Shown here: positions 10,713-42,066 of the stretch, in pieces | Layout of the letters: each line of letters starts with the position of its first letter | How positions within the stretch are numbered: position 1 is the first letter of the stretch | Sequence record: MH675927.1 | Source of the DNA: Escherichia phage vB_vPM_PD114 | DNA: 64,000 bases | Strand: one strand, 5' to 3' | Translations under genes and position numbers: made by a program | Notes under the pieces: generated by a model | Told to the model about the DNA's origin: nothing | What the model saw: only the letters and a program-made list of their open reading frames with translations | Databases searched by the model: none

Positions 10713-11306
10713 TTAAATCTTAAATTCTTCGTTGTTAAATGAATCCAGTGTACGTACTTCTGGTTCTTTGGGAATGAAAACGTCTTTTACAAAGCGGAAC
10801 ATAGGGAAACGTTCTGCCATTTTACGGACGTGTGCTTCTTTACCTGTGTATCGGTGATTAATAGTGCAAATATTAGTTTTCAATGCAAACTCAAAATCTG
10901 GATGATATACATAATTTTGACCATCCCAGTAACACAGGCAAATAGCTACGTCAAAGTTCCATACGATTTCACTGCGTACACCCTCTTCCATGATCATAAA
11001 GTTAAACTTAAGGTCTTTATAGTATGCTTCAAATACCCATTTCAAATGTGGTAGTTCGGCATAAGTGTGTTCTGTTTGCTTAGTAAGTTGTTTAACATTA
11101 CGTGCACCAACACCCAACATCAAAAACTTCTCTACTAGCACGAGTGTATTGTGGTTAGGCATACGCAAGTAAATGTCAATGTCTTGTGCAGGTTTCTCTA
11201 ATCGCCAATCACGTACAGCGCCGCCAGCTACAATTGCAAACGGATCTACCAGTTGGCACATACGTAATACTTCTAAAGCGCGTACTTTTTGATCTTCAAT
11301 ATTCAT
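10713..11306 (-). CDS. nucleotidyltransferase of the poly(A) polymerase / tRNA CCA-adding head-domain family
   Basis: Motif VAGGAVRDWRL...DIDIY matches the GGxVRD...DxD signature of PolyA_pol/CCA-adding enzymes; start placed at ATG 11306 (RBS AGGAGA) rather than the upstream GTG. Confidence 0.6.
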   Translation of the reverse strand: MNIEDQKVRALEVLRMCQLVDPFAIVAGGAVRDWRLEKPAQDIDIYLRMPNHNTLVLVEKFLMLGVGARNVKQLTKQTEHTYAELPHLKWVFEAYYKDLKFNFMIMEEGVRSEIVWNFDVAICLCYWDGQNYVYHPDFEFALKTNICTINHRYTGKEAHVRKMAERFPMFRFVKDVFIPKEPEVRTLDSFNNEEFKI

Positions 11307-11314
11307 ATTTTCTC

Positions 11315-11911
11315 CTATCGTTTCCACTCTTTGTGTTGTTCTACATGCTCAAGCATTTCATTATATAGTGCTTTAAGATGTGGAACAACTCTTTCATCTT
11401 CAGTTTCAAAGAATTTTGTAAGCTGCTCTGCCTTAGCTTTCAACCAGCAAAGATGCGCTTCAATTTCAGTATTAAAACGTCCCAGCGTTTTCATGCGACT
11501 GCCTACTTTTATGTTGGCTTTATACTTTTTACGATCTTTCTCGTAACTACAGCCTACCATAGTCCCATGAGATCTTTTACTTACTCTATAAGCTAAGAAC
11601 TTATTAAGATCTCCTGTTACTAAAAGACAGGTATCGGGAGAGTAAACTCTCCCTCCTATAATATCTTTATCAAGTTCTAAGTTTTCCCAGTTATCCCAAG
11701 TTTGCAACCAGGAATAGAAATTGGAGAACAACTTCCATTCTTCACAAACCGTCACCCCCTTATAACAAGGATCACGTTCTTGTTGACAAGGGGAGTAACA
11801 CCTCCCCAACATAGCCATCCATTTCATATAATGCGGCGTTAGTTTCTTACTACCAGGTAGTGTACTCTCGCCTTCCAAATCATTAATACCTTCACTATAC
11901 ACGGTAAGCAT
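11315..11911 (-). CDS. putative homing endonuclease-like protein with AP2-type DNA-binding domain
   Basis: N-terminal WMAMLGRCYSP...YKGVTVCEEW block typical of phage HNH/AP2 endonuclease families; C-terminal YEKDRKKYKANIKVGSRMKTLGRFNTEIEA is AP2-like; adjacent to the DNA polymerase gene. Confidence 0.5.
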   Translation of the reverse strand: MLTVYSEGINDLEGESTLPGSKKLTPHYMKWMAMLGRCYSPCQQERDPCYKGVTVCEEWKLFSNFYSWLQTWDNWENLELDKDIIGGRVYSPDTCLLVTGDLNKFLAYRVSKRSHGTMVGCSYEKDRKKYKANIKVGSRMKTLGRFNTEIEAHLCWLKAKAEQLTKFFETEDERVVPHLKALYNEMLEHVEQHKEWKR

Positions 11912-11938
11912 AAAAACTCCTTTAAAATCAAAGAGATG

Positions 11939-14900
11939 TCAGTGACAAGTTGACCATGAACTACCAACATCGTAACCAGCAGTTAGAGGTACATTAAGAT
12001 TGTAATACTCACCAGCTTTATTAACAGCGATAGATGCTAATTCTCCAGCACGACTGTAGGCTGTAAACCAACCACCTTTCGGAGATTCATGTACGTTAGC
12101 CCAAATCTTGCCAGTACGTTTCTCTTCCTCTTCTTTCCAGGTATTAACTTTATCCAAACATTCTTTATCAATTTTCTTTTGTTCTTCTGGATCATCAACT
12201 TGAGTCCAACCTAAAGATTCTTTAGAGAACCATTTAAAATGCACGAGATCACGAGTTACTTCAAGCTGTGCTTCATCGTGATATGCAATCATTTGTTGAA
12301 CGAATGACTTATTTTTCCAGTCATCAACAAAAAAGTCAACAGCTAATCCTTCTTCTTCGATAAGATCGTCGTAGATAACCATTGCTCTTTTTGCACAAAT
12401 AACACCACCACTCTGGAACAGAGAGTTAAGTATTGCGTGTGCAGATCGTGTAGGTACTTTCCTACCATCAATACCAAGAATGTATTTCTTACCTGTTTTA
12501 ACCCAAAAATCATGCAGACGTTCTTTAAGAAGTGCAAGAGGTTTTGCAGCTTCCCAGAAAGCATCGTATACAAGCTGTCCTGTATACATATCACTACCAA
12601 TAGTTTTTGCTACTTTTGCAGCTTGAGCACCATAAGTAATACCATACTTAACAGATTTAGCAGGGCTTCGTTCAAACTTACGACCAATAGTGTCAGAAAT
12701 ACGTCGAGCCATCATTGTATGAACATCATTAGGTTTTTCCAACAATAGAGCATTACAATATTCGTGTGGTTCCTGCTCGTACCGCCAACAATTCCCTGTA
12801 ATCGTGATGCAGTCTTTCTGACGCATAACCCATGTACCGAGTTCTGTTTGTGGACACCAAACATCTTCTACACCCCATTCTTCAATAGTCAGACTTTGAA
12901 CAGGGATGTGAGAGCGGTTAGCCAACGTTGCCACTTTTACTTTCTGGTCTTTCGTATTGAAGGCTACAGAAATATTACCCCCATGAACCAGGTATGAGGC
13001 AGTTAAGGCTGCTTCAAAAAGTTCTCCTGGGTTCTGCGCCCAGCGCCAAACAGGTTTTTGTTTATGTTTGTGCCAGTAACCATCCGCAATCAAAAAACCT
13101 TCCAAGAAAGCCACACGCTCGGCATGAGACATATTAACTACACGTTCTACCCACGGAACATCCCATTTACCTTGTTGAACAGAAGTTAAACTATTTACTT
13201 GATCTTGTTCCATGTTAAATGGAGCATTACAAATAATGTTATCTCCTGTGCAAAGCTCGGCAGTTGTTCTGACTTTAGGCACATAAGTATTCCCTGTACT
13301 ACGAGTATTAACATACCAACGGTGATCTGCTGTTGCACGATAAGTATGGGATTTTCCTTTAATCTCAAACGTCTTACTATTTTTATAGAAGACCTTACCT
13401 TTTACTTTAGTCCATTCTTTAAGTCCTGTTTCTGGGTTATATCCTAAGATTTCATCCCCTTCTTGTAGATCGTGATAACCAACCCAACCTTTACGGGTTA
13501 GTGCTTGTGCATCCATAGGTACACAGTAATGTGATTCTATTTTTGCCTCAAGAGAATCAAAGTCATAACCAATTTGGAAGTATTTTGGAACTTCTACACC
13601 AAATAAGTTACGCATTTCATATCCGTACAGAGATGTTACACGTGGGATGTTTGCTACTAACCTATGTTTCATACGAGACGTAGCTGCATCGCACGTTGCA
13701 GCAGGGGTTGGTATACGACCATCAGCCCTTACTGCCGCCAGATAACCTTTATCGTAATCCTCTTCATCCTCTTCCCAATCAGCGCCACCCCCTAGAATAG
13801 AGTTCCTACGATGTTTATACGTAAGATACTGCACAATCTGCGTAGCATAAGGAAACTTTTCACCTAGTGCTTCCAAGTTAGGACAAATATCCTTCTCTTG
13901 CCCTTTTGTAAAGGAAGGGTTAGTAAGCACTTTAACACCACGGCCTTTAGCTTTAGCAATACGATCTCTTAGTTTCCATTCCAAAGTTTCTGGTGTGCAC
14001 TCCAGATGATCACATCTATCCTGGCAGAAGTTAGATGCTAACGTTTGATCAACATAGTCACGAATAGCTTTCTCCATTTGTGCTTCATCTTTCTTAATCT
14101 TAGTGCCAGATTTAAGAGTGATATCTTTATCTTTATATTCAGATGGACTCCAACCTAAACCAACTAACCAATTTTTAATATGTGTAGTGTCGTCTAAAGT
14201 AGCAGGTACTGTAGGATCACAAATAGGTTCTTCTGCTGGAATAGGTAGTTTAAACTCCTTACCTAATGCAAATAACCACCAACCATCTTCTTTTTGTACA
14301 AGTTCACCAGAATGTTTCTCTGCAAACTTTATCATGTTACTTGAAGGTTCACCATTCTTTTTAAACTGTAGTTTAGGTGGAATGAATGATTTCAAATAAC
14401 CTTTAGTAGCAGGTTTAGGAGGTAGTACAGGTTCTGCCTCTAAACGACATGCTTCCATTCGAGCATCCAGATCACGAATATTATCTTCTGCTTGTTTCAT
14501 ATTGAAAGCAAAGCCACGGTGCTCTTGACGTGTAATAATATCAGCTACACGTTGTTCTAAGTTAAATGGTTCAGACCACTTATTATAATCACCCCACTCT
14601 TCCATCAAATAACGGAACACTGCGGTGTTAGCTTTGTTATCGTAAATACAGTAATACAGCATATCTGCTGCAAATGTTCTAAATCTTTCAGTTTCAGGGA
14701 TGTTTTTTCTAAAATCAATTTTAACATCCCCTCCAGCTTTCTTAGATAACTCTGCCAGACTATGACCACCGAAGCGATCAGGGTTTAGTGTCTTACTTAA
14801 GATCATAGTATCACAAATTTCAATGTTACTATTACCCCAAGTATTGTACTTAATACTGTAGTTGAGTTTAAAAAATAATTTAATTGCCAGTAAGTCGAAG

Positions 14901-15253
14901 TTAATGATGTTGTGTCCAACTACTTTGGTAATTTTATAGTTTGAATTACCTTTAAATTTACCTGTTCCATTTACAAAATCAGGAAAATCTTTAAGAGGGA
15001 AATGGGTATATTCTAAATGCTCATATTCCTCCAGTCGGTATTCATACTTTCCGTCAGTCTCAATATACGGACGACCATCGAAAAGATATTTATCACCATC
15101 ATGGAAAGCAATAATCTCTCCAGTATCATGACTTTCGCACACAATACAGTGCATTGCAAAACTATCTTTTAAACGATATGGACTTGCCAAGTAATCTACA
15201 CTTTCGTCATTAAGCAAGTTGTTACTTTCAATGTCGAAAGTAAAAGCTCCCAT
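11939..15253 (-). CDS. DNA polymerase, family A (T7 gp5-like), with 3-prime-5-prime exonuclease domain; contains an intein
   Basis: N-terminal exo motifs (FDIES, HCIVCESHD, GGHSLAEL) and C-terminal motifs (KSVKYGITYG, GIDGRKVPTRSAHAILNSLFQSGGVICAK, AYHDEAQLEV) colinear with T7-type polymerases; RBS AGGAGGGAGA. Confidence 0.9.
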   Translation of the reverse strand: MGAFTFDIESNNLLNDESVDYLASPYRLKDSFAMHCIVCESHDTGEIIAFHDGDKYLFDGRPYIETDGKYEYRLEEYEHLEYTHFPLKDFPDFVNGTGKFKGNSNYKITKVVGHNIINFDLLAIKLFFKLNYSIKYNTWGNSNIEICDTMILSKTLNPDRFGGHSLAELSKKAGGDVKIDFRKNIPETERFRTFAADMLYYCIYDNKANTAVFRYLMEEWGDYNKWSEPFNLEQRVADIITRQEHRGFAFNMKQAEDNIRDLDARMEACRLEAEPVLPPKPATKGYLKSFIPPKLQFKKNGEPSSNMIKFAEKHSGELVQKEDGWWLFALGKEFKLPIPAEEPICDPTVPATLDDTTHIKNWLVGLGWSPSEYKDKDITLKSGTKIKKDEAQMEKAIRDYVDQTLASNFCQDRCDHLECTPETLEWKLRDRIAKAKGRGVKVLTNPSFTKGQEKDICPNLEALGEKFPYATQIVQYLTYKHRRNSILGGGADWEEDEEDYDKGYLAAVRADGRIPTPAATCDAATSRMKHRLVANIPRVTSLYGYEMRNLFGVEVPKYFQIGYDFDSLEAKIESHYCVPMDAQALTRKGWVGYHDLQEGDEILGYNPETGLKEWTKVKGKVFYKNSKTFEIKGKSHTYRATADHRWYVNTRSTGNTYVPKVRTTAELCTGDNIICNAPFNMEQDQVNSLTSVQQGKWDVPWVERVVNMSHAERVAFLEGFLIADGYWHKHKQKPVWRWAQNPGELFEAALTASYLVHGGNISVAFNTKDQKVKVATLANRSHIPVQSLTIEEWGVEDVWCPQTELGTWVMRQKDCITITGNCWRYEQEPHEYCNALLLEKPNDVHTMMARRISDTIGRKFERSPAKSVKYGITYGAQAAKVAKTIGSDMYTGQLVYDAFWEAAKPLALLKERLHDFWVKTGKKYILGIDGRKVPTRSAHAILNSLFQSGGVICAKRAMVIYDDLIEEEGLAVDFFVDDWKNKSFVQQMIAYHDEAQLEVTRDLVHFKWFSKESLGWTQVDDPEEQKKIDKECLDKVNTWKEEEEKRTGKIWANVHESPKGGWFTAYSRAGELASIAVNKAGEYYNLNVPLTAGYDVGSSWSTCH
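12791..13525 (-). mobile_element. intein inserted after polymerase motif A (about 245 codons, LAGLIDADG-type endonuclease motif)
   Basis: In-frame block CVPMDAQALT...ITITGN followed by Cys; contains VAFLEGFLIADGYW; flanking extein ...LEAKIESHY|CWRYEQEPHEY... is contiguous relative to T7-type polymerases; terminal dipeptide is GN rather than HN. Confidence 0.7.
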
Positions 15254-33931: not shown

Positions 33932-34402
33932 TTAGTCAGATTCCCAAATGTTGTCTTTCTTAACCCACATTCGTTGATTATCTGAACCTCTATAACGTTT
34001 CGTTGTTGGTTGATTCATATCATACTTACCATCTATCACTATGTCAACCAGTTTTTTAATTTTCTCTGGAATTTCTTCAAAAAGATATCCTGTATATAAG
34101 ACAATATCTTTTTTGTTTCCAAAACAATCTCTTACCTTCTCAAGAACATACTCTACAGTGTCAATGTTCTCTTTGTCAAGAGGTTCACCACCTAAAACTG
34201 TTAATCCTTTAATGAAAGGTCGAGATAAATCTTCCAAGATAAGATCTAATGTTTCAGCAGTGAACTCTTGTCCGTAATTATACGACCAGGCTTTCTGGTT
34301 AAAGCAGCCACGGCAACCGTGGCTACAACCGCTCACCCACAAAGAGCATCTTACACCGTCACCGTTGAGCATGTCAACAGGTTCATATCCGGCGTAATTC
34401 AA
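33932..34402 (-). CDS. nrdG: anaerobic ribonucleotide reductase activating protein NrdG (radical SAM)
   Basis: MNYAGYEPVDMLNGDGVRCSLWVSGCSHGCRGCFNQ follows the NrdG N-terminus including the CxxxCxxC radical-SAM cluster; TTG start; 4-nt overlap with nrdD stop. Confidence 0.85.
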   Translation of the reverse strand: MNYAGYEPVDMLNGDGVRCSLWVSGCSHGCRGCFNQKAWSYNYGQEFTAETLDLILEDLSRPFIKGLTVLGGEPLDKENIDTVEYVLEKVRDCFGNKKDIVLYTGYLFEEIPEKIKKLVDIVIDGKYDMNQPTTKRYRGSDNQRMWVKKDNIWESD

Positions 34403-35340
34403 AAATGTTTCTCCCTTTCTAGTACCTCTTGCATTTTACCTTTATTATAAGGGCGAGAGTTAGGAGCAGAAAGGTATCCTGACACTCTTCTGATCACAGA
34501 TATGGATTCTTCTTCATGATTACCGCAACTTGGACACTCGAAGCCTTTAGCCGTTGCTTTAAACTCACCATGAAAACCACATTTGAAACACTGATCTACA
34601 GGTTGGTTCACGCCAAAATAAGGAATTTTGTTGTAGGCATAATCTACAAGAGTTTCCAGTGCTTGCAAGTTATTTTTAAGGTTTGGTGTTTCTACATAAC
34701 CTATGTTCCCACCGTTACTAATTTGTGCAAAACCTTCCTCATAATCCCACTTTTGGAACGGGGTAGTGTGCATCCATACAGGTTGATGGAAAGAGTTTGT
34801 CAAGTAGTCACGATCAATAGAACCAGGATAGCGATCATTTAATGCTTTGGCAAATTTATAGCACAAGGATTCTGCTGGTGTTCCATACAAACTAAAAGCT
34901 AAACCAGAACGTTCTTTAAATGTGCCACAGATATCCTTCATATATTGAAGGATGTTTTTACCCATTGCTTTTGGATTGGTGTTACCTGGGTATAAAATCT
35001 CCATAGCTTCTGCTAAACCTACATAACCGATACTAATAGAGGCATAACCACCTTCGAATAGTTTACCAATCTCTTCATTAGCTTCTAGTCGAGCTAAAGC
35101 CCCTTCCATAAACAATGTAGGGTTTTGAGATGCTTTGGTATGTCTAATACGGTTAACACGTAGCATATGTGCCTTATACGCCATCTCCATATGTTGTTCC
35201 AACAGTTCAGTAAATAAGATGCCCTTTTCACGGGACTCTGCTGCAATGATAGGTAAGTTTAAAGAAACTACGCCTAAGTTGAAACGACCATCATATTTTT
35301 CACCTTGCTCTGTTGCATAGTATGACAAGAAACTTCTACA
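34399..35340 (-). CDS. nrdD: anaerobic ribonucleotide reductase NrdD, exon 2
   Basis: C-terminal zinc ribbon CFKCGFHG...CPSCG and glycyl-radical motif RRVSGYL; exon starts TGT AGA (CRSFLSYY) right after the predicted 3-prime splice site. Confidence 0.8.
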   Translation of the reverse strand, partial: CRSFLSYYATEQGEKYDGRFNLGVVSLNLPIIAAESREKGILFTELLEQHMEMAYKAHMLRVNRIRHTKASQNPTLFMEGALARLEANEEIGKLFEGGYASISIGYVGLAEAMEILYPGNTNPKAMGKNILQYMKDICGTFKERSGLAFSLYGTPAESLCYKFAKALNDRYPGSIDRDYLTNSFHQPVWMHTTPFQKWDYEEGFAQISNGGNIGYVETPNLKNNLQALETLVDYAYNKIPYFGVNQPVDQCFKCGFHGEFKATAKGFECPSCGNHEEESISVIRRVSGYLSAPNSRPYNKGKMQEVLEREKHF

Positions 35341-35619
35341 CATTATGTTCAAAGTGGCTCGCAAGGCCACTCCCGCACCATTACGTGCTGCTGCATGTCA
35401 CCATGCAGATCAGACTATATCTTCATGCTTAAAGCATGTCTACCATTTGGGGTGTCATAGGCTTACACCCTACGCTGCTACATTCATCACAGCTAGTCGT
35501 TAGGCATTTCGTAATAGTACCCCCTTCTTCTGTGTTGGGAGTTCTGTTACGTTTAGCACGGGATTGTCTCGTTGAGAGTTCCCCCGTTTAGGCAGATTTT
35601 ACATGAGCAGTTATAGTTT
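35341..35619 (-). ncRNA. group I self-splicing intron (td-like, no internal ORF) interrupting nrdD
   Basis: 279 nt between the two nrdD reading frames; core-like TAAACGGGGGAACTCTCAACGAGACAATCCCGTGCTAAAC and P7 3-prime element AAGATATAGTC; CTGCATG-GTGA-CATGCAG hairpin near the 3-prime end; ends GAACATAATG; exon 1 ends ...ATGGGT. Confidence 0.75.
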
Positions 35620-36477
35620 ACCCATGCTTGTGACGCGACCATCTGAAGATCCTGTAACTTCTTTGTTTAAAGGTACAGAGATAAAATCAGGATAAATGCG
35701 TTCAGCACAACACTCCATTGCCAGTTGCTTCAAATCATAGTTTGGATCGCCAGCTTTCATGTTAACACCATCTTCCAAGAAGAAGATAACTTTAGGAAAC
35801 ACAGGAGTTACCCTATCTTTTCCTAATCCTTGTTTGTGCACCATTAGGTAGTTTTTAGTGATCATTCTACCAAAAGCAGAGGTATCCAAACCTAAACTAA
35901 TTGTTATAAAAGGTGACTGACCATTTACACTCATTAGAGTGTTCACCTGGTAGATTAAAGTTTGCATTGCATCATAGACCTGTTTATCTACCATACGCAT
36001 AGCAATATCATAATCGCCAACATCGGCATATATTTTATTAAAACTTGCTTTAACGTATTGACTAAGCCCAGTATCAACATGTGCACAAGTTTGTCCACCA
36101 TATTGGCTAGAGGCTACTGCTTGAATAATTTGAGTTAGGACAGTAGTTGCTACACCGATAGATTTTGGTTTTTCAATATGTGCATTACCAATACGGAAAC
36201 CGTTCTCAAGCATATCTTGGTAATTTACCAGGCAACAATTAGTTAGAGGTGAGAGTAAATAATCTAAATCGTGAATGTGACCATACCCGCTTTTATGCCA
36301 TTCTGCCAGATCTTCCGGTAAAATATGGGTCATTGCCATGTGCTTGCTCAGAATACCTGCTAGTAAGTCTCGGTGAGTATTAACAATCATTGCAGGTTTG
36401 TTTGCATTTTCACGAGTAAATTCTTCGGATGTTTGTTCGAGGAATCCGATTACATCCTCATATAGTTTTTGGGTCAT
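35620..36477 (-). CDS. nrdD: anaerobic ribonucleotide reductase NrdD, exon 1
   Basis: Start ATG 36477 (RBS GGAGG); reading frame stops 9 nt into the intron; splicing predicted to join ...RVTSMG to CRSFLSYY..., giving a 599-aa product. Confidence 0.8.
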
Positions 36478-36494
36478 TAATCCTCCGTGGAAAA

Positions 36495-36520
36495 TAAAAG
36501 CCAGCATTAAGCTGGCTTTA
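36495..36520 (-). terminator. rho-independent terminator
   Basis: AAAGCCAGC-TTAATG-CTGGCTTT hairpin followed on the minus strand by TATTTTCC; between 36567-37517 and nrdD. Confidence 0.5.
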
Positions 36521-38813: not shown

Positions 38814-41588
38814 TTAGTTTACCAGTTTATTTATGTCTGGTAAAAGATTTATTTCACCTAAGAAATCACCTTCACCTTCCTCTAGCCAACTCTCATATGC
38901 TTGTGCATGATTATAGTTACCATCAAAAGAATCTGCAACAAATTTTTCTACAGTTTTTCGAGATGTGCCAGCGCCAAATACACCAAGTTTAATACCATTG
39001 ATCGGTAAAGTGGTGCTTGTGGGTACTTTCTCTGTTGCAACACGGTTGATATCTATAATCTCCTGTACGGTTGTGTTCCATTGTAAGCATTTAACACAAC
39101 GGGTATGCGCTACATACAGTAGGTTTCGCTCTGCCTCTTCTAGTCCTACCCACTCACCAGTCTTTTTATCATAGTTGGAAGGAAAATCATTAGCAACAAT
39201 AACCTGATCCCACTCCAAACCTTTAGACTTGTGTGCTGTAGTCAATGTGACTTTTGCTGTAGGAGAATTTCTATGCGTTCTAAGTGTATGTGCTATAGTG
39301 TTTGCCTTACCAGAAACTACAATGTTTAACAAGCGTTTAGCATCTGGATCAGCCTCTGCACACTCAACAAATTCATTCCAGTCTGCGTAAGGTAATACAG
39401 TTTCATGTTTTACTTTCTCAATATCTCCTCTCCGAAGAGCATTAACACTATCTACCATAGAGATAAAATCCCTGGTATCTACGTTAATAATAATTTCTTC
39501 CCCATCTGCAATACGATCCATTGCCTCCATAAGCAAGGTTAAATTCTTGCGAAAGATGATAGTGTAAGGTTTTGTATAGTCTACAACATCTGATTTGTAG
39601 CTACCTACTACAGTATCAAAGCCTTTACCAACCAAAGGATGACGCAAAGGTTCTTTATCACTTAAAATCATATTTGCAATGTTTGCCACTTTGGGGCCAA
39701 AACGGAAGCAAGCAGTTAATGGAAGCTCTGCCCCATACTTAGCTGTTTCAATCATCATATTAGAGCTACCTCTAAATTGATAAATGCAGTTGTGGCTAAG
39801 AATTTCATTGCCAAAAAAGTTAGCAGTATCTTCTACTTCAATATCATAATAGATACCCTCACTATCTACAATGTCCACTATCTCTTCTGCCGTTACAGTA
39901 TCACCATCTTTTACTAACACAGACATGCCTTTAAACAAACCCGCTGCCGGAATTAAATTATATTTGGCAGTGTTCACAGAGGACATGCATTCTTTTAAAG
40001 ATGCAAACGGAACTATTTCAAGGATCTTTTGTGCAAAACTCAATGCTTCACGATAAGAATTGAAATATTTACGTACACGGTAACGACCTTCCAATTTAGC
40101 AACACTTACGCTTACACCTGCTTCAATGAGTGAGGCATAGATTGGCATTTCACTTTCTGTCCACTCAAAGCTAACTTGTGTTCCTTTACAACCTTGTGCT
40201 CGCAAAGTCACTGTTAACATTTTTCTTGCATCTACTGCACAATTGATGCTGTGCCAATGTGGATAAGCAAAATGATAGTCTTTATCCTCTAAAAGTTTAA
40301 AACCATTTTGTCCGAATTGTTCAAAGATATTGTTGATCCTTTCTTGATTAATACCGCGTGAACTTGCTTCAAATACACAAGTAGGAATGCCATATTGTAA
40401 ACTGTATGCCATTTCTTTTTCCATAGCAGCTTCACGGTTTTCAACAATATCCAACACCCACAACTTCTGTGCTTTTTCAGAACGTGTACGTTGCCCCAGT
40501 TTAGAAAAACCTTCTTTATCATCGAATTTGTTAGTGATCCCTACTCGGAAACCTAAATCTTTTCTCCACATTAGGTATACCACCATCTGATCATCTTTCA
40601 GAACATAAGGTGAAGCCCAAATACGATGGTTATGTGTCATATCTAAAGTCTTACCTTTAGCAGTAATAATATTCCTACCTTTTGTACGTGTAGATAAAGT
40701 CTTATTTGTTACTTTTCTAAATGTAACTTTACCGTTAGAATAAGACTCTACCTTATCACCGATTTGCAGGTCTTTCATTGTAACCTGACCATTTTCGGTA
40801 TTAAGTACCGTGTTTTCTGACACACATTGGAATTCATCACCAACTACCACAATTTGTTTGGCAGATTTAGCATTCCGCAGAATAGACAAGAATGCAGGGT
40901 TAACATCCTGGAATTCATCCCCAAAAATAATGTCATAACCAAGATCAGCACCAGACAATTCAAACAATTTTACATAGGTGTCATGCGTCATCAAAGTATC
41001 TGTGTTAGGGTCAATGCGCTCTCGCCACAATTGTTTTGCATACTTAACTACTTCTGTAATTAGTTTGTGTTCGTTAATACCTTTTCTTTTAATATCTGCA
41101 AGATGTACACTAGGAAAATGTTTACGGCTGATAAAAGGATCATCCGAAAATTCAAACTTACCTACGGTTTGCTTGATCATTAAACCAATCATAGCACGAG
41201 TTAAAAGTGTTTTCCCTCGTTTATCAATAAGATTATTAATCTTAAATTTCTTTGCTATCTCACTACCTGTACCTGCAACGTTAACATACTGTCCTTCTGG
41301 TCGTGACAGTTTTGCACGTAAACGATGATCCAGGAATTGATAGCAAATGGAATGCAATGTACGGCATTCTACATTTGGTGGCATCTTACGCCGTGCTTCT
41401 TCTGCCATGCTTTTATTGAAAGCTAAGTAAAGAATGCGATCTTCTGTACTGTTAGCCAGCAAATAAAGTGTTGACGTTTTTCCTGATCCAGATTTAGCTT
41501 GGATAGTTAAAAACCGATGATCTGGAAAAGCCTCCTTAATAGCTGTTTGCTCTTCTGTTGGAGTAAAACTCAACTCTTTCTTAGCCAT
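38814..41588 (-). CDS. UvrD/PcrA-like superfamily 1 DNA helicase; contains an intein
   Basis: Walker A AKSGSGKTS, motif II IIFGDEFQD, motif III VVVGDEFQ|...|CIYQFRGSS split by the intein; start at ATG 41588 (RBS AGAGAGG). Confidence 0.85.
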   Translation of the reverse strand: MAKKELSFTPTEEQTAIKEAFPDHRFLTIQAKSGSGKTSTLYLLANSTEDRILYLAFNKSMAEEARRKMPPNVECRTLHSICYQFLDHRLRAKLSRPEGQYVNVAGTGSEIAKKFKINNLIDKRGKTLLTRAMIGLMIKQTVGKFEFSDDPFISRKHFPSVHLADIKRKGINEHKLITEVVKYAKQLWRERIDPNTDTLMTHDTYVKLFELSGADLGYDIIFGDEFQDVNPAFLSILRNAKSAKQIVVVGDEFQCVSENTVLNTENGQVTMKDLQIGDKVESYSNGKVTFRKVTNKTLSTRTKGRNIITAKGKTLDMTHNHRIWASPYVLKDDQMVVYLMWRKDLGFRVGITNKFDDKEGFSKLGQRTRSEKAQKLWVLDIVENREAAMEKEMAYSLQYGIPTCVFEASSRGINQERINNIFEQFGQNGFKLLEDKDYHFAYPHWHSINCAVDARKMLTVTLRAQGCKGTQVSFEWTESEMPIYASLIEAGVSVSVAKLEGRYRVRKYFNSYREALSFAQKILEIVPFASLKECMSSVNTAKYNLIPAAGLFKGMSVLVKDGDTVTAEEIVDIVDSEGIYYDIEVEDTANFFGNEILSHNCIYQFRGSSNMMIETAKYGAELPLTACFRFGPKVANIANMILSDKEPLRHPLVGKGFDTVVGSYKSDVVDYTKPYTIIFRKNLTLLMEAMDRIADGEEIIINVDTRDFISMVDSVNALRRGDIEKVKHETVLPYADWNEFVECAEADPDAKRLLNIVVSGKANTIAHTLRTHRNSPTAKVTLTTAHKSKGLEWDQVIVANDFPSNYDKKTGEWVGLEEAERNLLYVAHTRCVKCLQWNTTVQEIIDINRVATEKVPTSTTLPINGIKLGVFGAGTSRKTVEKFVADSFDGNYNHAQAYESWLEEGEGDFLGEINLLPDINKLVN
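39789..40826 (-). mobile_element. intein in helicase motif III (346 codons)
   Basis: Starts CVSENTVLNTENGQVTMKDLQIGDKV (canonical intein N-terminal block), ends FFGNEILSHN followed by Cys; removal restores VVVGDEFQ-CIYQFRGSS. Confidence 0.75.
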
Positions 41589-41589
41589 T

Positions 41590-42066
41590 TCAACCTCTCT
41601 TAATTTGTTTAACAAGCATAGGAACAAAATCTCGTTTTAAAATTTGTTCAATAATATGATCAGGTAGCTGTTGGAAATTATAATTAAACGCTACTGTCTC
41701 ACCTTTAGGTGTTTCTACCCGCACATATAGCATGTTACGAAGTTTATCCACTTGTGCTGTATATTCTAAACCACGTAATTGATGCATTGCAAACATCAAA
41801 TCCTCAGTTTCAGTTTGGAATCTATCCCTTGTTTGCATCAAGGATAAGGCAAAAGGTAGATTTTCCCTAAGAGCCACCTTCTTAGGCACTAATGAAGGGA
41901 AATACTCCCCAATAACTTCCTGTGTAAGCTGAATACACTCTTTTTCAAGCTGGTTTTGTTCCTTGAGTTCACAAACACTTTTTTGTAAAGTGTTAACCTC
42001 TTTTTGCAAAGCTGCTAGTTGAGCACTTAACTTTCTTTTTTGATTACGACCAAAACGTTTAGACAT
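41590..42066 (-). CDS. hypothetical coiled-coil protein
   Basis: 158-aa ORF. Confidence 0.4.
   Translation of the reverse strand: MSKRFGRNQKRKLSAQLAALQKEVNTLQKSVCELKEQNQLEKECIQLTQEVIGEYFPSLVPKKVALRENLPFALSLMQTRDRFQTETEDLMFAMHQLRGLEYTAQVDKLRNMLYVRVETPKGETVAFNYNFQQLPDHIIEQILKRDFVPMLVKQIKRG

Follow-up and report, generated by a model that had tools for sequence, protein, structure and literature searches.

A putative free-standing AP2-domain selfish gene of the IPA-HNH family beside the DNA polymerase gene of a phi92-like Escherichia phage

In the genome of Escherichia phage vB_vPM_PD114 (sequence record MH675927.1), a phi92-like E. coli myovirus of the genus Justusliebigvirus, an open reading frame (ORF) of 198 amino acids (aa) separates the gene for DNA polymerase from that for a nucleotidyltransferase, and the question which this locus raises is whether the ORF is a selfish gene of the homing endonuclease type or a phage gene with some other role. 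The window analysed here is the whole stretch of 64,000 nucleotides (nt) of this genome in which the ORF lies, and the 6 kb surrounding the gene share 99.2% identity with phage PD06 and 98% with phi92. An earlier note, made from the DNA letters, had proposed a free-standing, homing-endonuclease-like gene with an AP2 domain directly downstream of the polymerase gene. This proposal was borne out, in that the ORF is intact from end to end (Table 1), begins 27 nt past the stop codon of the polymerase ORF, matches AP2 domains by both profile and fold and is similar to the proteins known as IPA-HNH. With moderate confidence, we consider that the 198-aa gene, as a member of the IPA-HNH family, is probably a selfish gene of the free-standing homing endonuclease type, for which we infer nuclease activity, a target and homing. 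The observations which lead to this reading are the integrity of the gene, its domain architecture and family membership, purifying selection on its intact copies, its polymorphism among close relatives, recombination on both of its flanks and a position after the polymerase gene which recurs in other phages.

The polymerase ORF (1104 aa; 11939-15253) matches the Pfam family DNA_pol_A (family-A DNA polymerase), and the 3′ end of the 198-aa ORF lies 8 nt ahead of the annotated ATG of the nucleotidyltransferase gene. A scan for promoters and terminators from the polymerase to the nucleotidyltransferase gave no more matches than shuffled sequence did; the 198-aa gene is therefore most simply read as a member of the polymerase operon, and it is likely to be co-transcribed with the polymerase gene. 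The protein matches the PHROG family phrog_953, named ‘HNH endonuclease’ (7e-73), while separate PHROG families cover its residues from about 22 to 109 and from about 108 to 180, and the RefSeq record of PD06 (99.3% identical) already labels the gene ‘HNH endonuclease’. The ‘HNH-family N-terminal block’ of the earlier note is thus upheld as a conserved block, but it does not appear to be a canonical HNH domain and the catalytic His is missing from it. Searched on its own, the 198-aa sequence gave nothing in Pfam and NCBIfam scans, even at E ≤ 1, and only a chance match (E 0.12) in a sequence search of the PDB.

Under the name ‘IPA-HNH’, Barth et al. (2023; PMC10448857) described homing endonuclease genes, starting from gp59, gp115/116, and gp209 of Vibrio phage ICP1, whose N-terminal domain is related to HNH but diverges too far to be detected by Pfam HNH_3 and is followed by a C-terminal AP2 domain. 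These genes are plentiful in Barbaviruses and 29% adjoin DNA polymerase genes. HHsearch matches to HNH are given for the ICP1 members, and the paper contains no biochemistry on the proteins and no discussion of the missing His or of an invariant K/Y motif (PMC10448857). No later papers using the term ‘IPA-HNH’ were found in the literature searched. Using tblastn with the 198-aa protein, it was possible to identify homologs in 1551 phage records. These include ICP1, with 32% identity (3e-15) over 85% coverage and the motif VLDKD...YHPDLC...N common to both, and 115 Rheinheimera Barbavirus records with about 36% identity. The matching ICP1 ORF is HQ641350 112284-112916, the equivalence of which to gp209 could not be confirmed. 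Because of this direct similarity to ICP1 and Barbavirus proteins, the 198-aa protein is best assigned, at the level of sequence, as a new member of the already described IPA-HNH family. The genes of that family and the 198-aa gene are alike in joining a divergent HNH-like domain to an AP2 domain, in being free-standing and in often lying beside a polymerase gene, with no real difference between them.

The position after the polymerase is not confined to Justusliebigvirus. A homolog directly follows the polymerase stop codon in Phapecoctavirus (78–86% nucleotide identity), in Klebsiella phage KP2025 (69%) and in Rheinheimera Barbavirus (36% protein identity), whereas a jumbo-phage homolog sits at another location. 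In the Rheinheimera phage barba_12-8G (MT497264 14265-14918), the post-polymerase homolog (36.5% identical) carries the label ‘tRNA nucleotidyltransferase’, apparently in error. In KP2025, the polymerase gene preceding the homolog is annotated as at least three separate coding sequence pieces with gaps, suggesting introns or other insertions. No paralog of the gene was found within the 64-kb window. Phage phi92, which is without the gene at the polymerase site, encodes a 39%-identical paralog, gp074, elsewhere in its genome (FR775895 30098-30508), so that within Justusliebigvirus the family occupies more than one insertion site.

A search for homologs of the protein gave 120 proteins, of which 41 were aligned as a profile. 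When compared with the PDB, this profile matched the AP2 domains of WRI1 (7wq5, best E 3.5e-5), ERF096 and AtERF1. The Pfam AP2 family (PF00847) was matched individually by nine of the 41 homologs, while the 198-aa query alone fell below the gathering threshold of PF00847, with no match at E ≤ 1. The AlphaFold2 model of the full-length protein, with a predicted local distance difference test score (pLDDT) of 92.4, has two domains, the AP2 part being predicted to comprise strands 121–124, 129–136, and 139–146, followed by a long helix (149–168). A Foldseek search with the full-length model identified the AP2 structures of TEM1 and WRI1 (probability 0.92–0.99) with a root-mean-square deviation of 1.2 Å over 47 columns; its matches in the PDB were AP2 domains only, with nothing for the N-terminal half. 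As the family profile and the predicted-fold matches agree, the AP2 assignment appears sound at family level. Some of the homologs possess N-terminal CapR/DUF723 zinc-finger modules. For CapR, DUF723 and DUF4379 there was no Pfam match in the 198-aa query, such domains being found only in N-terminally extended homologs.

The N-terminal domain is modeled as helices followed by a beta-beta-alpha unit consisting of strands 78–81 and 96–99 and helix 100–106 (AlphaFold2). Seven of its residues, namely Y50, D81, K82, D83, Y90, C95, and N103, are invariant in all 121 homologs (121/121), the identity of which goes down to about 30%. C95 is the sole invariant Cys among these, C38 being conserved at 74% and C56 at 89%. 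A search with the N-terminal domain alone was conducted against 1.84 billion cluster representatives, from which the domain family was found to amount to 10,290 clusters (50% identity) at E ≤ 1e-3. The strict pattern [LIVM]-D-K-D...Y-x-P-x-x-C-x7-N was present in 128 of the 148 top representatives. Position 82 is K in each of the 121 homologs, and a His at that position was seen in none of the 148 distant representatives.

Canonical HNH-AP2 homing endonucleases were reportedly described by Magnani and colleagues in 2004. Together with I-HmuI (HNH_3 PF13392; His-Me finger group 2; 1U3E), these resemble the 198-aa protein in the modular joining of a nuclease domain, putative in the 198-aa protein, to an AP2 domain and in a beta-beta-alpha core, which is predicted in the latter protein. 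The reference sequence of I-HmuI was checked against PDB 1U3E. In a gapless comparison, D81, K82, and N103 are placed opposite D74, H75, and N96 of I-HmuI with an identical 22-residue spacing from D to N, whereas in the hhalign alignment of the core there is a gap opposite the I-HmuI His, KD..GNK is aligned with KDGNK, and N103 again with N96. The general-base His is therefore missing in either register. The motif (D)(H)KDGNK..N...NL.WVT...N of I-HmuI is set against DKDIIGNK.YSPDTC.FV....N in the 198-aa protein, in which the catalytic His is either replaced (K82) or deleted and for which there is no Pfam match to HNH_3 or NUMOD4. An acidic residue in predicted strand 1 (D81) and an Asn at the predicted start of the helix (N103) are placed as in His-Me fingers.

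When the N-terminal-domain model was compared with the PDB, the top fold match was PacI (3LDY), although this match was weak (E 1.8, TM 0.45, 16% identity). Seven of the 13 weak matches obtained (all E ≥ 1.8) were His-Me nucleases, including PacI, pyocin AP41, TasH, colicin E9, and Gme HNH. PacI (His-Me finger group 20) is without a His general base, for which a Tyr in the inter-strand loop substitutes, while one Asp and one Asn serve as the ligands of its metal (PMC5714182, PMC4081073). By analogy, the 198-aa protein would resemble PacI in having no His, an invariant Y90 in the 82–95 loop, D81 and N103, so that D81 (and/or D83) with N103 may form the metal site and Y90 or K82 may be the catalytic residues; a PacI-like mechanism through Y90 may reasonably be supposed from the loop position and invariance of this residue. 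PacI differs in being a homodimeric restriction enzyme with two structural Cys4 zinc sites and no AP2 domain, and no such Cys4 sites were seen in the family of the 198-aa protein, where C95 alone is invariant among the 121 homologs. Tentatively, and with a little less than even confidence, we propose that the family consists of beta-beta-alpha-metal nucleases without the hallmark His, using Y90 and/or K82 together with D81/N103, a PacI-like chemistry recruited for homing. If true, the His-Me finger would have a further, catalytically distinct form, spread through a phage family of great size (more than 10,000 clusters at 50% identity).

To describe the distribution of the gene, records were collected with the phi92 junction as query, giving 55 Justusliebigvirus-type records that are at least 95% identical. 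The earlier note had regarded the presence of the gene at an identical site in all relatives as contrary to a selfish gene; what was found instead was 27 records with the gene, 27 with a contiguous spacer of 137–139 bp, which is a relic of the gene, and one, phage ‘outra’, with an internal deletion. This last allele appears from its sequence to be an independent and recent loss, separate from the relic. The relic allele retains the ribosome-binding site and the ATG. Its divergence from the current alleles (20–31%) is greater than the synonymous divergence (dS) of the neighboring gene (0.10–0.13), suggesting an older, different allele as the ancestor of the relic. A 31-aa ORF annotated within it in some records can be dismissed as spurious, the relic reading as what is left of the 3′ end of the gene, interrupted by many stop codons. 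For the intact copies, the ratio of nonsynonymous to synonymous divergence (dN/dS) is 0.08–0.16 relative to other alleles, over dS up to about 1, and judging from these values the intact copies are under purifying selection, with function retained.

Two further observations were made. A second class of alleles (588 bp; PaulScherrer, ECGD1) differs from the allele of the window in the first ~80 nt only, that is at the N-terminus, pointing therefore to mosaic recombination within the gene. Also, four records labeled as Campylobacter jejuni phages, ‘Campylobacter phage’ A150, A145, C3, and A110a (MG065639, MG065645, MG065656, and MG065689), are 99.2% identical to phi92 at the polymerase/nucleotidyltransferase junction, and are probably mislabeled or contaminant genomes.

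With the aim of locating the target site, the association of single-nucleotide polymorphisms (SNPs) with the presence of the gene was analyzed over 900-bp flanks in 14 genomes. These genomes are otherwise ~98% identical, yet variation affects nine of the 23 final sites of the polymerase gene, compared to 42 of 817 further in. Here the polymerase protein ends in GSSWSTCH or GNSWASCH, with Ser codons switching between AGT and TCT and the stop codon between TGA and TAG. Three complex haplotypes were identified at this 3′ end, each of which was seen both with and without the gene. On the other side, every variant of a SNP lying 26 bp into the nucleotidyltransferase gene is likewise found in carriers and in non-carriers. 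Gene presence and the markers flanking it thus do not travel together, and recombination must have occurred repeatedly within tens of bp on either side of the gene.

A constrained ORF beside an essential gene, balanced presence and absence, degenerate copies and local breakpoints together agree with the life cycle of homing endonuclease genes of the free-standing type. In the mechanism proposed, the gene would be co-transcribed with the polymerase and its own AGGAG ribosome-binding site would serve for translation, after which the C-terminal AP2 domain would bind specific DNA at the junction of the polymerase and nucleotidyltransferase genes or close to it. Genomes that have the relic allele only would then be nicked or cut by the N-terminal beta-beta-alpha-metal domain. 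In the putative active site of this domain, D81 (and/or D83) and N103 would be the ligands of one metal ion, with Y90 as general base or nucleophile as in PacI, possibly aided by K82. During mixed infection, the break would be repaired by recombination with a gene-carrying genome, such that the gene and short flanking tracts are copied into the empty site. Once cuttable targets are exhausted, copies would decay and be deleted, which would account for both the relic allele and the ‘outra’ deletion.

A number of results weigh against this mechanism. On the side of the nuclease, the canonical catalytic His is absent from the N-terminal domain, so that it is not a canonical HNH domain. No HNH family in Pfam was matched by the query or by any of the 41 homologs, or by the N-terminal domain, and the sequence searches of Pfam, NCBIfam and the PDB gave no HNH match. 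Comparisons by hhalign were not significant with I-HmuI (probability 0.1%), with the I-HmuI family of 120 relatives (probability 0.3%), or when the core only was used (probability 1.3%, P 0.039). The 13 matches of the N-terminal-domain model to the PDB at E ≤ 10 were likewise all non-significant, and no biochemical assay of any IPA-HNH member was found in the literature searched. On the side of mobility, the gene-less allele reads as a deletion derivative and not as a clean empty site, and vertical inheritance, loss and ordinary recombination could therefore give the same distribution without homing. In the 14 genomes, no haplotype adjoining the gene tracks its presence, while one SNP about 590 bp away does; as no other flanking polymorphism separates carriers from non-carriers, no target site could be located. 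In a base-composition test for foreign origin the GC content of the gene was equal to that of its flanks, and there is therefore no sign of a recent foreign origin.

Given these points, other explanations have to be considered. One is that the product binds DNA in a sequence-specific way but is no nuclease, being for example a regulator of transcription or replication in which the beta-beta-alpha unit has been kept, as a degenerate nuclease fold, to bind DNA or to dimerize. None of the family members examined has the general-base His, and His-Me proteins that have lost catalysis and bind DNA do exist, for example the Smad MH1 domain (PMC5714182). Some homologs carry CapR/DUF723 zinc fingers and several records label homologs as ‘DNA-binding protein’. 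A precedent is also provided by the CasPRs (CapR+AP2), phage AP2 proteins which bind specific DNA, as is proposed for the 198-aa protein, and which are pure transcriptional silencers (bioRxiv 10.64898/2026.02.23.707548). However, CasPRs are found in Bacillota prophages and have no nuclease-like domain, whereas the 198-aa protein has the DKD...Y...N domain and, by Pfam, no CapR. The invariant D, K, D, Y, and N are placed exactly where metal ligands and a PacI-type Tyr would be expected, and if the gene encoded a regulator of a core process, one would not expect to find it in just half of genomes that are 95–100% identical, or to see it decay repeatedly. An essential-gene neighbor with a patchy distribution is, moreover, the typical signature of homing endonuclease genes (PMC10448857). 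We consider a purely DNA-binding role to be rather unlikely, if still worth serious attention.

It could also be that the protein is an active nuclease but that its gene is a vertically inherited, repeatedly lost accessory gene, with a role in phage exclusion, anti-satellite activity, or DNA degradation or processing. Loss has been directly observed, both the relic and ‘outra’ being deletion derivatives, while gain has not; the same position in four phage groups fits an ancient residence, the GC content of the gene equals that of the flanks, and in ICP1 a nuclease domain related to homing endonucleases has been co-opted for anti-satellite defense (Odn; PMC10448857). Such a gene would be harder to reconcile with the 20–31% divergence of the relic when dS in the flank is about 0.1, which suggests distinct gene lineages at the site and alleles that move between backgrounds, with the reshuffling of tightly linked markers on both sides, or with the hypervariable patch at the adjoining 3′ end of the polymerase gene. 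This account is thus an unlikely one in our judgment, to which we give slightly less credence than to the DNA-binding role. Much less probable again is that the protein acts in trans to mobilize the polymerase intein, by cutting the intein-less polymerase allele. For such ‘collaborative homing’ there is a precedent between free-standing homing endonuclease genes and introns (PMC10448857), and the gene is about 880 bp from the intein insertion site. Against it, the intein has its own LAGLIDADG-like block, FLEGFLIADGY, and the two elements assort independently, all four combinations being seen: among the listed records seven had both, four the intein only, 20 the gene only and at least eight neither. 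Statistically, gene and intein occur independently of each other, with no sign of cooperation, and on this ground collaborative homing is strongly disfavored.

Genes of the SegG/MobE type drive localized marker exclusion and co-conversion, and the same behavior is proposed for the 198-aa gene if it is a homing endonuclease gene. T4-like SegG, MobE and their relatives are also similar to it in being intergenic beside conserved essential genes and in being present or absent among close relatives (PMC10448857). They belong to other nuclease families (GIY-YIG, and canonical HNH_3 with a zinc finger) and their cleavage and homing have been experimentally shown, whereas both would be predictions for the 198-aa gene. 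As a selfish element, the gene would be one more in a replication module that already has two inteins and a group I intron. It would also mark a local recombination boundary that is relevant to phylogenies and to the engineering of phi92-like therapeutic phages. More broadly, the large IPA-HNH family (1551 phage records, about 10,000 protein clusters) is routinely labeled ‘HNH endonuclease’ and yet is without the HNH His. The culturable carriers PD06 and, from the BASEL collection, PaulScherrer, EmilieFrey and JohannJBalmer, together with the non-carrier phi92, would make a convenient test system.

Table 1. Positions in the 64,000-nt window of the 198-aa gene, its predicted parts, the alleles compared with it and the inteins and intron of the same region.
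Feature	Position	Strand	Details
Complete ORF, IPA-HNH/AP2 homing-endonuclease-like protein	11315..11911	(-)	198 aa + stop; ATG start; uninterrupted
Shine-Dalgarno AGGAG	11917..11921	(-)	5 nt upstream of ATG (11909-11911); read from sequence
N-terminal nuclease-like domain, divergent ‘IPA-HNH’ (putative)	11576..11911	(-)	aa 1-112; AlphaFold2 pLDDT 91-92
Predicted beta-beta-alpha core	11594..11680	(-)	aa 78-106; motif L-D81-K82-D83...Y90-S-P-x-x-C95...N103
AP2/ERF-type DNA-binding domain	11408..11563	(-)	aa 117-168; family profile and fold matches
Segment deleted in phage ‘outra’	11375..11822	(-)	Clean 448-bp deletion; remnant 96.7% identical to window
3′ end of gene with decayed counterpart in relic	11307..11393	(-)	69-80% identity, stop codons (alignments)
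Polymerase 3′ end, hypervariable patch	11939..11961	(-)	Last 8 codons + stop; candidate target or conversion-tract boundary
Polymerase intein	12791..13525	(-)	245 aa; aa 577-821 of polymerase ORF; CVPMDAQ...ITGN|C
Second intein, in UvrD-like helicase ORF 38814-41627	about 39789-40829	(-)	Start ...DEFQ|CVSEN; Cys1; end ...SHN|CIYQ
Group I intron	35391..35665	(-)	Rfam RF00028, 72.5 bits

The two inteins and the group I intron which the earlier note had placed in the context of the gene were all recovered, the inteins in the polymerase and in a UvrD-like helicase and the intron by its Rfam match (Table 1). Most relatives do not have the polymerase intein. As this intein gives no Pfam match, though it contains a single LAGLIDADG-like block, its endonuclease may have degenerated. 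The helicase intein gave matches to Hint and Intein_splicing just below the Pfam cut-offs (aa 267–613). The group I intron separates two NrdD-like ORFs (34399-35370 and 35611-36507) and is too short for an endonuclease ORF of its own.

Lastly, the start of the nucleotidyltransferase gene is annotated in two ways. RefSeq has the ATG at 11306, giving an ORF of 10713-11306 on the (-) strand, and the BASEL annotation has the longer form; the ORF can be extended to a GTG (10713-11327), in which case there is a 13-nt overlap with the 3′ end of the endonuclease-like gene.

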